Source: Syntrophomonadaceae bacterium (GTDB taxonomy: Bacteria > Bacillota > Dethiobacteria > DTU022 > UBA8154). From it: a stretch of DNA of 64,000 nucleotides. Below the pieces are notes generated by a model. It was not told the DNA's origin, made no database searches, and worked only from the letters and a program-made list of their open reading frames with translations. The stretch spans positions 158-64,157 of the forward strand of contig PWTK01000112.1 in the NCBI GenBank assembly GCA_003563895.1, in the 5' to 3' direction. Each line of letters starts with the position of its first letter. The stretch's first letter is position 1. The translations under genes and the position numbers were made by a program. Positions 13,418-14,287 of this stretch are shown piece by piece.

Positions 13418-13687
13418 CTACAGGCCGGTATAGAGAGGGATCAGCGGGTTGGCAAAGAGCAGGATGAGGGCAATCACCAGGGCGTAAATCCCGGTGGTTT
13501 CCGCGATGGCGGCACCCAAAAGCATTGTCCTCAAGATGTCCCCCTGGGCTTCCGGCTGGCGGCCGACCGCTTCTGCGCCTTTGCCCCCGGCATATCCCTG
13601 GCCAAAACCCGGGCCTATCCCGGCTACCATGGCTGTTCCGGCACCGAGTGCCGAAGCGGCAAGAATCAAAGCTTCACCTGTAATCAC
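13418..13687 (-). CDS. atpE: Fo ATP synthase c subunit (single hairpin, Na+-type motif)
   Basis: 89 aa, GTG start. GPGFGQGY loop-proximal Gln and AIAETTGIY (Glu-Thr-Thr...Tyr). Confidence 0.95.
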
Positions 13688-13732
13688 GTCAACTCATCTC
13701 CTTTAAACAATTTGGTTTTATTTATTCAGAAT

Positions 13733-14287
13733 TCAATACAGGAGCGGATTCGCATACAAAAGGATCAGGGCGATCACCAGGGCGTAAATCCCGGTGGTCT
13801 GGCTGATGGCTTGGCCGAGCAGCATGGTTCTGACCACGGGAGGCTGCAGGCTGGGTCGGTGCGAAATGGCTTCCAGCGCCTTGCCGGCTGCATAGCCCTG
13901 CCCGACCCCCGGCCCGAAGCCGGCAATCATGGCGATGCCGGCCCCCAGGGTGGAAGCCACCACCACGAGCCCCGCCTCCGGCAGCCCGACAAGCGGGTTG
14001 GCATAAAGAAAGATCAGCGCCACCACCAGGCTGAAAATGCCCGAGGTCTCCGTTATCGCCTGGCCGAGCAGCATGATAAAGGTGGACTGCCGAACCATCT
14101 TGGGGTTGGTGCCCGTCGATTCGGCGGCCTTGCCGGCGGTATAGCCGTGGCCGATACCGGTGCCGATACGGGCCAGCATGGCGATGCCGGCAGCCAGGGC
14201 AGAACCGGCCAGGATGAGCGCTTGCGGATCCTGTTCGGCAAGCCAGTCAAACCCGGCATCCATGATGAACCTCAATACCGCGTACAA
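13733..14287 (-). CDS. atpE: Fused double-hairpin (4-TM, V-type-like) c subunit of the F-type ATP synthase
   Basis: 184 aa, TTG start 9 nt after AGGAGG. Two tandem c-subunit repeats. Repeat 1 has [13 protein letters not shown] (Glu present); repeat 2 has [13 protein letters not shown] (Gln replaces Glu). Confidence 0.85.

Follow-up and report, generated by a model that had tools for sequence, protein, structure and literature searches.

Acetobacterium woodii and Clostridium aceticum have F1Fo ATP synthases in which a fused double-hairpin c subunit (c1) is encoded beside single-hairpin c subunits. In A. woodii, the only species for which the stoichiometry of such a ring is known, nine copies of c2/3 and one copy of c1 form a hybrid ring with 10 ion-binding sites (PMC9171764, PMC3604715), and the single-hairpin subunit is encoded by two identical genes (PMC7911925). 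In C. aceticum, c1 (motifs Q..ET and Q..QT) is followed by one c2 (Q..ET) with no atpE3, and the membrane ATPase is stimulated by Na+ (PMC7911925). For A. woodii, Propionigenium modestum and C. aceticum, it has been demonstrated that ATP hydrolysis or synthesis depends on Na+ and that Na+ protects from DCCD (PMC7911925, PMC9171764). A reference cited in PMC9171764 reports that E. coli needs the native AtpI to produce a functional A. woodii enzyme. The c1 subunit goes back to a duplication of an F-type c that took place independently (PMC7911925).

A canonical Na+-binding hairpin carries Gln32...Glu65-Ser/Thr66-Thr67...Tyr70 in Ilyobacter tartaricus numbering, which is used below for all "positions", and the ligand roles of these residues have been described (PMC3692424). 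Among the five Na+ ligands is the side-chain oxygen of the Gln at position 32, the NH group of which donates a hydrogen bond to the carboxylate (PMC3692424). The two-carboxylate ring of F. nucleatum (3ZK1) has Glu in place of this Gln and retains Na+ coupling (PMC3692424). The rings of I. tartaricus (1YCE), P. modestum and F. nucleatum are homomeric with one site per hairpin, and no fused subunit, dead site or His32 is seen in them. V/A-type c subunits (E. hirae NtpK, 2BL2; eukaryotic V-ATPase c; E. limosum A1Ao c) share with c1 a four-helix double hairpin with one carboxylate per two hairpins; however, they form homomeric rings, whereas c1 is a minority subunit of an F-type ring. In the c subunits of T. 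acetatoxydans and E. limosum, it is hairpin 2 that holds the live site (PMC13564433).

The window analysed here, a 64-kb stretch of DNA from a distant, uncultured Bacillota lineage with a G+C content of ~56%, contains a complete F1Fo operon on the minus strand, as judged from open reading frames and Pfam matches (positions 7783–15687; Table 1). It is a normal housekeeping F-type ATP synthase operon with F-type gene order, and it lies downstream of glyA-upp, as is usual in Bacillota. The order atpI-B-E1-E2-F-H-A-G-D-C is the same as in A. woodii, except that the window has one single-hairpin c gene where A. woodii has two, and the layout of c1 followed by a single c2 is identical to that of C. 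aceticum. The closest named matches of the F1 alpha subunit (AtpA), from Carboxydothermus and Carboxydocella, are just 73% identical, and the nearest genome match among those listed is the Syntrophomonadaceae MAG CSSed11_70 (72%). The arginine in the LSFRLFGN motif of the atpB product is presumably the essential stator Arg (E. coli aR210). No rRNA or tRNA genes were found in the 64-kb window, a Pfam scan of its remainder revealed no genes for Rnf or Na+-pumping decarboxylases, and no second ATPase was detected within this single window of the genome.

Table 1. Features of the atp operon in the window, listed in the direction of transcription.
Feature	Coordinates	Strand	Evidence
atp 'gene 1' (small AtpZ/AtpR-like membrane protein), at the start of the operon	15490..15687	-	Pfam PF09527 ATPase_gene1, E=1.9e-07
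atpI (assembly factor)	15084..15473	-	Pfam PF03899 ATP-synt_I, E=5.8e-13
atpB, Fo subunit a (stator)	14345..15010	-	Pfam PF00119, E=2.6e-46; LSFRLFGN motif with conserved stator Arg in translation
atpE1, subunit c1, 184-aa fused double hairpin (4 TM), one carboxylate	13733..14287	-	ORF; two ATP-synt_C domains; 4BEM_J match
c1 hairpin 1 (residues 19-101)	13985..14233	-	Aligned without gaps to hairpins of I. tartaricus, A. woodii and the window
c1 hairpin 2 (residues 102-184)	13736..13984	-	Gln163 column equals the A. woodii c1 Gln (AQTTGIY)
atpE2, subunit c2, 89-aa single-hairpin F-type c, full Na+ motif	13418..13687	-	4BEM_A and 1YCE matches
atpF, subunit b	12853..13353	-	Pfam PF00430, E=1.1e-26
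atpH, subunit delta	12314..12856	-	Pfam PF00213, E=5.7e-41
atpA, F1 alpha	10671..12218	-	Pfam PF00006, PF00306, PF02874
atpG, F1 gamma	9692..10627	-	Pfam PF00231, E=8.4e-97
atpD, F1 beta	8234..9634	-	Pfam PF00006, PF02874
atpC, F1 epsilon, at the end of the operon	7783..8202	-	139-aa ORF directly downstream of atpD; L003 homologue has PF02823/PF00401 ATP-synt_DE

An initial annotation, made from the DNA letters, had described two c genes between atpB and atpF, and both open reading frames are where it placed them; the motifs that it quoted for the two hairpins of c1 and for c2 are all correct. The c2 gene starts with GTG, preceded by GGAG, and encodes one ATP-synt_C domain (PF00137). Its motifs, GFGQGY and AIAETTGIY, give the site signature QIAETTY. 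In a gapless alignment with I. tartaricus c and A. woodii c2, every ligand residue is present: Gln30, Ile61 (through its backbone), Glu63, Thr64 and Thr65 (positions 66 and 67) and Tyr68. All c2 site residues are common to I. tartaricus c, in agreement with the initial annotation, which associated this pattern with Na+-binding c rings such as those of Ilyobacter and Propionigenium. The subunit is 77% identical to A. woodii c2 (4BEM_A, E=7e-35) and 67% identical to I. tartaricus c (1YCE, E=6e-33).

The c1 gene starts with TTG, with GGAGG 9 nt upstream, and encodes the tandem of c hairpins that had been predicted, with two ATP-synt_C domains (E=9.5e-28). A phmmer search of PDB sequences aligned residues 8–183 to residues 7–182 of A. 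woodii c1 (4BEM_J) without a gap (E=5e-54). An AF2 model comprises four long helices in two hairpins (residues 21–60, 62–96, 103–143 and 145–178), and its best PDB fold match is again 4BEM_J (TM 0.77; 52% identical residues in the fold alignment). Next come the c/c'' subunits of V-ATPases and NtpK of E. hirae (6VQ6_b, TM 0.63; 2BL2_A, TM 0.60), with a sequence identity of only ~20%.

Hairpin 1 contains the motif GIGHGY and keeps its carboxylate, Glu80 (codon 14048–14050), with Ser82 and Phe85 at positions 67 and 70. Hairpin 2 contains GVGQGY and keeps Gln130, Thr164, Thr165 and Tyr168, and carries Gln163 (CAG, 13799–13801) in place of the essential Glu. The live site of c1 is in hairpin 1, in contrast with the hairpin 2 site of V/A-type c. 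The A. woodii subunit likewise has its carboxylate in hairpin 1, Gln at the same column of hairpin 2 (SQTTGIY in the window), Ser/Phe at positions 67/70 of hairpin 1 and Thr/Tyr at those of hairpin 2, and its c2 has the same Q..ETT..Y pattern. A misaligned Glu-to-Gln position was considered and rejected, because Gln163 falls on the dead-site Gln of A. woodii in the gapless alignment with 4BEM_J. Glu80, Gln130 and Gln163 are invariant across 30 double-hairpin homologues. Two fused F-type hairpins, with Glu in the first and Gln in the second, and a gene that sits in an F-type atp operon with atpB on one side and a single-hairpin c gene on the other, identify the window subunit as an A. woodii-type c1.

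The two hairpins of the window c1 are just 51% identical to one another. Hairpin 1 shares 63% identity with other hairpin 1s, 49% with hairpin 2s and 55% with c2s; hairpin 2 shares 65% with other hairpin 2s and 55% with hairpin 1s. Judged by these identities, they are orthologous to hairpins 1 and 2 of A. woodii-type c1 and stem from one ancestral duplication, not from a recent private fusion. A homologue from another sample (L003; SRR20069370) lies in the same operon and has the same 184-aa length, with 92% amino acid and 81% nucleotide identity. Against it, dN/dS is 0.039 for c1 (0.03–0.04 for both halves, 0.032 for the hairpin 1 half) and 0.03 for c2, with dS ~1 in each case; these ratios indicate that c2 and both halves of c1 are under strong purifying selection.

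The initial annotation considered this arrangement rare. That holds for biochemically studied enzymes only; in genomes, a fused c gene was present in 79 of the 79 best matching loci in the GTDB species set, and a single c subunit with the Q..ETT..Y pattern followed it in 77. On this evidence, the c1–c2 pair is common in Clostridia, and is a widespread, stereotyped design, not a curiosity of A. woodii. In a representative library clustered at 50% identity, the c1 family is reduced to a single representative.

Hairpins were compared by means of an HMM of one hairpin and hmmalign, in a survey of 672 hairpins. A regular pattern was seen at positions 67 and 70. In fused open reading frames, these positions of a hairpin were non-Tyr in 104 of 104 cases in which the next hairpin lacked a carboxylate. 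They were Thr/Tyr in six of the seven fused hairpins followed by a hairpin with Glu, in every last hairpin (84/84) and in every single c subunit (83/83). Tyr70 and Thr67 are kept only beside a live carboxylate, and this shows which neighbour completes which site. Fusions of three to six hairpins were also seen.

These rotor genes, belonging to a housekeeping F1Fo operon, probably encode a heteromeric, Na+-coupled F/V-hybrid c ring of c1 and c2, as in A. woodii. Many c2 copies would each contribute a complete Na+ site, for which one hairpin would supply Gln30 and Glu63, and its neighbour Thr64, Thr65, Tyr68 and the backbone carbonyl of position 63. One or a few copies of the double-hairpin c1 would join c2 in the ring. 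The dead site of c1 would be formed by Gln130 and Gln163 together with the outer helix of hairpin 1; as Gln163 is not a carboxylate, this site should be unable to take an ion past the Arg of the subunit a stator. Because c1 would take two ring positions and give at most one transported ion, the Na+/ATP ratio is predicted to be slightly lower. The changed ion-to-ATP ratio put forward in the initial annotation, like the match to the A. woodii hybrid rotor, agrees with this comparison: the A. woodii ring of nine c2/3 and one c1 has 11 hairpins and 10 sites, and the statement follows from it by homology.

Relative to A. woodii c1, hairpin 1 of the window c1 differs in that Gln is replaced by His47, Gly by Arg40, Pro by Thr43 and Ala by Thr79. 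His47 (CAC, 14147–14149) occupies the Na+-liganding position 32, as the initial annotation had noticed. At the Gln column of the Q....ET motif, the live hairpin therefore has His, and the Glu-Thr part is present. Arg40 (14168–14170) replaces Gly25 of the GxGxGxG packing motif of the inner helix, the packing of which could be altered as a result, and Thr43 replaces Pro28. C. aceticum c1, compared by its published motif rather than by alignment, has the canonical Gln in hairpin 1, as do 28 of 30 c1 homologues. His47 stands at the position of a direct Na+ ligand, which makes the one "live" site of c1 non-canonical and is the sole unusual detail of an otherwise known rotor type. In the hybrid ring, the His47/Glu80 site would be completed by Thr/Thr/Tyr of the preceding subunit. 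Its chemistry would be altered, with an imidazole in place of the amide oxygen ligand and with Arg40 and Thr43 on the same helix face; the carboxylate is kept, and the site most likely still carries an ion.

It is also conceivable, although unlikely, that the His47 site, with or without a contribution from Arg40 and Thr43, no longer moves Na+ in this otherwise Na+-coupled operon, and either binds H+ only or has its carboxylate neutralised internally by His or Arg. His lacks the side-chain oxygen that, at position 32, serves as one of the five Na+ ligands (PMC3692424). The substitutions are confined to this lineage: His at position 32 occurs in three of the 672 surveyed hairpins and Arg at position 25 in nine, all from this subclade, and positions 25, 28 and 32 fall within a 60-degree arc of a single helix face. 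They are also maintained, as the hairpin 1 half has the low dN/dS given above and the CAC codon of His47 is retained in L003 at dS ~1; the codons of Glu80 and Gln163 have changed synonymously. Nevertheless, Glu80, Thr81 and the ligands derived from the neighbouring subunit are intact, and a neutral His can act as a hydrogen-bond donor and also supply a lone pair, in the manner of Gln or of the protonated Glu32 of F. nucleatum. Moreover, the closest relatives with Arg40 and Thr43 (L004, P0026, P0030 and P0035) still have Gln, so that the standard motif can coexist with Arg and Thr on their own. If c1 did not transport Na+, it would be a two-position spacer, or part of a mixed-ion ring, and the Na+/ATP ratio would fall below that of A. 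woodii.

A second alternative is that the enzyme is H+-coupled despite its motif, and that c1 is a mere duplicated c subunit of an H+ F-ATPase. Some H+ rings likewise have Gln and Glu. This reading is nonetheless very improbable, given that c2 has every Na+-site residue, including Thr64/Thr65 and Tyr68, that A. woodii c2 and I. tartaricus c, to which it is 77% and 67% identical, both belong to Na+ enzymes, and that Na+ stimulates the C. aceticum enzyme, in which these motifs recur (PMC7911925). Na+ coupling is the favoured reading.

The contigs matching the window are from SRR490155, SRR490150 and GCA_003567515.1; the c1 protein is identical on the Logan contig (SRR490155) and the NCBI MAG contig (GCA_003567515.1), and the 100% identity of their c1 DNA means that these copies may be non-independent and come from one sample. 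Although the three identical contigs could share one source, the notion that the 184-aa frame is an assembly artefact of two joined c genes, or a decaying pseudogene, was rejected as having a negligible probability, because the frame runs unbroken between the halves with neither a stop nor a frameshift, it matches A. woodii c1 in length (184 versus 182 aa), the independent L003 homologue preserves it, dN/dS is low, and the fused architecture occurs in all of the best genome loci, including complete isolate genomes.

The hybrid rotor predicted here is of a kind already known in both A. woodii and C. aceticum, and it does not overturn current understanding. Hybrid F/V rotors are the textbook intermediate by which c duplication and carboxylate loss changed the gearing of rotary ATPases, and they are also read as an adaptation to very low energy yield. 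To these the window contributes one more, found in a Bacillota lineage that is distant and uncultured. Across fused subunits, the Tyr70/Thr67 pattern is an evolutionary read-out of the neighbour that completes each site, and the His47/Arg40 variant is a natural experiment on how much change the one live site of c1 allows. Should the sole carboxylate site of c1 have been rebuilt in this lineage as a proton-binding or internally charge-compensated site that carries no Na+, which seems rather doubtful, each c1 would contribute two consecutive non-Na+ positions, or the rotor would be a mixed Na+/H+ one. This would be a further natural step from F-type toward V-type gearing inside an F1Fo ATP synthase.

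Open reading frame listing, inspection of the reverse-strand sequence and Pfam scans revealed a complete F-type ATP synthase operon, with every feature on the minus strand. The operon contains two c-subunit genes, encoding a fused double-hairpin subunit (c1, AtpE1) and a single-hairpin subunit (c2, AtpE2). On its upstream side the operon is preceded by a thiolase gene, beyond which are dCMP deaminase, upp, glyA, rpiB, a gene for a low-molecular-weight phosphatase and sua5; we take this to be the usual Bacillota neighbourhood of a housekeeping atp operon. The thiolase (acetyl-CoA acetyltransferase) gene separates the dCMP deaminase/upp/glyA block from the atp genes, and the related locus L001 carries the same insertion. 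F1 gamma is 311 aa long, as is its homologue in L003, a related locus from SRR20069370, whereas the Pfam profile has 285 positions; in F1 gamma a highly charged segment around residues 195–230, REEAAARDEEERQAKKEEKETTEGAEREED, resembles an insertion.

Features of the atp operon and other genes of the window
Feature	Position	Strand	Remarks
gene 1	15490-15687	-	PF09527
atpI	15084-15473	-	ORF listing/Pfam scans
atpB	14345-15010	-	ORF listing/Pfam scans
c1, 184-aa c subunit	13733-14287	-	TTG start, 9 nt after GGAGG
c1 residues 40-47	14147-14170	-	Arg40, Thr43, His47 for Gly25, Pro28, Gln32
c2, 89-aa c subunit	13418-13687	-	GTG start after GGAG
atpF	12853-13353	-	ORF listing/Pfam scans
atpH	12314-12856	-	ORF listing/Pfam scans
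atpA (F1 alpha)	10671-12218	-	ORF listing/Pfam scans
atpG (F1 gamma)	9692-10627	-	ORF listing/Pfam scans
atpD	8234-9634	-	ORF listing/Pfam scans
atpC	7783-8202	-	ORF listing/Pfam scans
Thiolase	15840-17036	-	
753-aa protein	3940-6201	+	CoA-binding, succinyl-CoA-ligase-like and ATP-grasp_5 domains
Na+/Pi cotransporter fused to PhoU domains	26413-28017	-	
Fur-family regulator	25862-26416	-	adjoins cotransporter
SAM (S-box) riboswitch	45005-45103	-	87 bits, E=2.5e-19
Cys/Met-metabolism PLP enzyme	43426-44745		downstream of riboswitch
WalR/WalK-like two-component system, YycH, YycI	54633-59637	-	

In phmmer searches of PDB sequences, c1 aligned without gaps to Acetobacterium woodii c1 (4BEM_J, 182 aa; residues 8–183 on 7–182, E=5e-54). 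SQTTGIY of the window protein falls on AQTTGIY of A. woodii c1, so the Glu-to-Gln position is not an alignment artefact. Correspondingly, c2 matched A. woodii c2 (4BEM_A, E=7e-35) and the Na+-binding c subunit of Ilyobacter tartaricus (1YCE, E=6e-33). An AlphaFold2 model of c1 (30 aligned sequences; mean pLDDT 76.6) comprises four long helices (21–60, 62–96, 103–143 and 145–178) besides a short N-terminal one; its closest structure is 4BEM_J (TM 0.77), followed by V-ATPase c/c'' subunits and Enterococcus hirae NtpK. Two further public contigs encode an identical c1 with 100% identical DNA and possibly derive from the same sample. L003, from a different sample, encodes a 184-aa, 92%-identical c1 in the same operon, and dN/dS between the two loci is 0.039 for c1 (0.032 and 0.039 for its halves) and 0.03 for c2 at a dS of approximately 1, which excludes both a pseudogene and an assembly artefact. 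Every motif quoted in the initial annotation was found, and the two ways in which its reading of c1 could have failed, a misplaced Glu-to-Gln position or a spurious joining of separate genes, are thereby eliminated.

No gaps are needed to align the three window hairpins with those of A. woodii and with I. tartaricus c, and I. tartaricus numbering is used here. Subunit c2 has Gln32, Ile-Ala-Glu-Thr-Thr at positions 63–67 and Tyr70; the Na+-type motif previously ascribed to it is therefore complete. Hairpin 1 of c1 has His32 (His47 of the protein), Ile-Thr-Glu-Thr-Ser and Phe70, and hairpin 2 has Gln32, Ile-Ser-Gln-Thr-Thr and Tyr70. In the Fusobacterium nucleatum and I. tartaricus structures, residue 32 and Glu65 bind Na+ through side-chain oxygens, the adjacent subunit contributes Ser66 O-gamma and the Val63 carbonyl, and a water molecule held by Thr67 and Ala64 is a further ligand; Tyr70 and Ser66 form hydrogen bonds with Glu65 (PMC3692424).

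Tabulation of consecutive hairpins over all fused ORFs of the related loci examined revealed that, where hairpin n+1 has Gln or Thr in place of Glu65, hairpin n lacks Tyr70 (104/104), mostly having Ser67 with Leu or Phe at 70. Where hairpin n+1 retains Glu65, Thr67/Tyr70 occur in hairpin n in six of seven cases; they also occur in the last hairpin of all 84 fused subunits and in all 83 single c subunits. This pattern fits a site composed of residues 32 and 65 of hairpin n+1 together with residues 63, 66, 67 and 70, which hairpin n would contribute from its outer helix. The E. hirae K-ring site, where Leu61, Thr64 and Gln65 come from helix 2, Gln110 from helix 3 and Glu139 from helix 4, would agree. 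The carboxylate-free site of window c1 would then comprise Gln130 and Gln163 with Ile78, Thr81, Ser82 and Phe85 of hairpin 1. The His47/Glu80 site would be completed by Thr/Thr/Tyr from the preceding ring subunit, and Thr164, Thr165 and Tyr168 of hairpin 2 would complete the site of the following one.

Glu80, Gln130 and Gln163 are unchanged across 30 aligned double-hairpin proteins. In a survey of 672 hairpins, His at position 32 was confined to three, all of the window lineage: those of the window protein, of an exact-cluster member and of the 92%-identical homologue. Nine of the 672 have Arg at position 25, a packing glycine of the GxGxGxG motif of the inner helix; all nine are hairpin 1 of the c1 subclade to which the window belongs, which otherwise retains Gln32. 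Arg together with Thr for Pro28 defines this small subclade (P0026, P0030, P0035, P0041, P0048 and L004); the homologue P0067 has the Arg and keeps the Pro. Positions 25, 28 and 32 lie within a 60-degree arc on one helix face. L003 has the same His codon, CAC, as the window but synonymous changes at Glu80 and Gln163; selection therefore maintains the His. The imidazole, if neutral, could stand in for Gln by donating a hydrogen bond and providing a lone-pair ligand. Another possibility is that the site has shifted towards H+ or internal charge compensation. That it no longer transports Na+ is improbable, and ion cycling at His47/Glu80 probably persists.

Window hairpin 1 shares a mean identity of 63% with other fused hairpin 1s, 49% with hairpin 2s and 55% with single c subunits; hairpin 2 is reciprocal (65% vs 55% and 60%). 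The duplication is thus older than these lineages, and window c1 and A. woodii atpE1 are orthologues. A c1 protein search (E<=1e-10) returned 715 clusters at 90% identity, from genera including Alkaliphilus, Natronincola, Fusibacter, Maledivibacter, Defluviitalea and Epulopiscium. When one genome per GTDB species was scanned, at least 600 matches were obtained; all of the best 79 loci contain the fused gene, followed in 77 by a Q..ETT..Y single-hairpin c (the exceptions are L071, whose contig ends there, and L081). The A. woodii ring comprises nine c2/3 and one c1, with 11 hairpins and 10 sites (PMC9171764, PMC3604715), and Clostridium aceticum, with a Na+-stimulated ATPase, has c1 and one c2 without atpE3 (PMC7911925), exactly the window's layout. 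From these papers and the genome survey, the c1 + c2 arrangement is already known and is common in genomes. The initial annotation's view of it as rare is therefore not sustained; its identification of an A. woodii-type c1 in an F-type operon otherwise stands.

Among the species-representative matches listed, the closest c1 is from a Syntrophomonadaceae MAG (72%). For F1 alpha, the nearest named relatives are Carboxydothermus and Carboxydocella (73%), with Desulfofundulus and Moorellaceae also among the closest (70–73% overall), unlike those of c1, which among the matches listed are mostly Peptostreptococcales/Clostridia genera. Patchy retention or Fo gene transfer may be responsible. G+C content is approximately 56%. 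Related syntrophic acetate oxidisers of soda lakes are reported to have c subunits with the Na+ motif (PMC6295475, PMC10608574); any link to the window would be hypothetical.

In related F-type operons the fused gene often exceeds a double hairpin. Stop-free ORFs encode three (L030, L036, L045, L079, L082), four (L027, L033, L031, L067, L081), five (L069, 3176-4504) or at least six c hairpins (L034, 2-1613); the observation also draws on proteins P0002-P0046 and P0133. The carboxylate is usually confined to the first hairpin (E/Q/Q, E/Q/Q/Q, E/Q/Q/Q/Q), and some ORFs alternate E/Q/E/Q. A Q..ETT..Y single c follows every longer gene except that of L081. Manual inspection of L069 revealed a 442-aa five-hairpin ORF preceded by atpB and followed by a single c, atpF, atpH and atpA. 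Isolate or complete genomes with three-hairpin forms are those of Acidaminobacter hydrogenoformans, Alkalibacter mobilis and Clostridiaceae bacterium 35-E11, and three-hairpin proteins are also recorded under the names Alkalibacter rhizosphaerae and Crassaminicella indica. The longest forms, from short-read MAGs, could be repeat misassemblies. Three loci (L018, L019, L040) have two tandem double-hairpin c1 genes (E/Q) ahead of the single c, at approximately 3254-5068 in locus coordinates. In the literature searched, which did not extend to the 2015 review of hybrid rotor distribution by Brandt and Müller, no bacterial F-type c subunit of three or more hairpins is described.

Elsewhere in the window, the 753-aa protein has what is presumably the architecture of ADP-forming acetyl-CoA synthetases, and would therefore bear on substrate-level ATP formation. 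The Na+/Pi cotransporter is another sodium-coupled function, and the Wal-type genes represent ordinary Bacillota housekeeping context.

It is likely that the window encodes a Na+-coupled F1Fo ATP synthase whose ring would be built chiefly from c2 with c1 in the minority; as c1 would fill two ring positions with one carboxylate, the ion/ATP ratio would be lowered, as in A. woodii. Window c1 shows a small, selected variation at its one live site.
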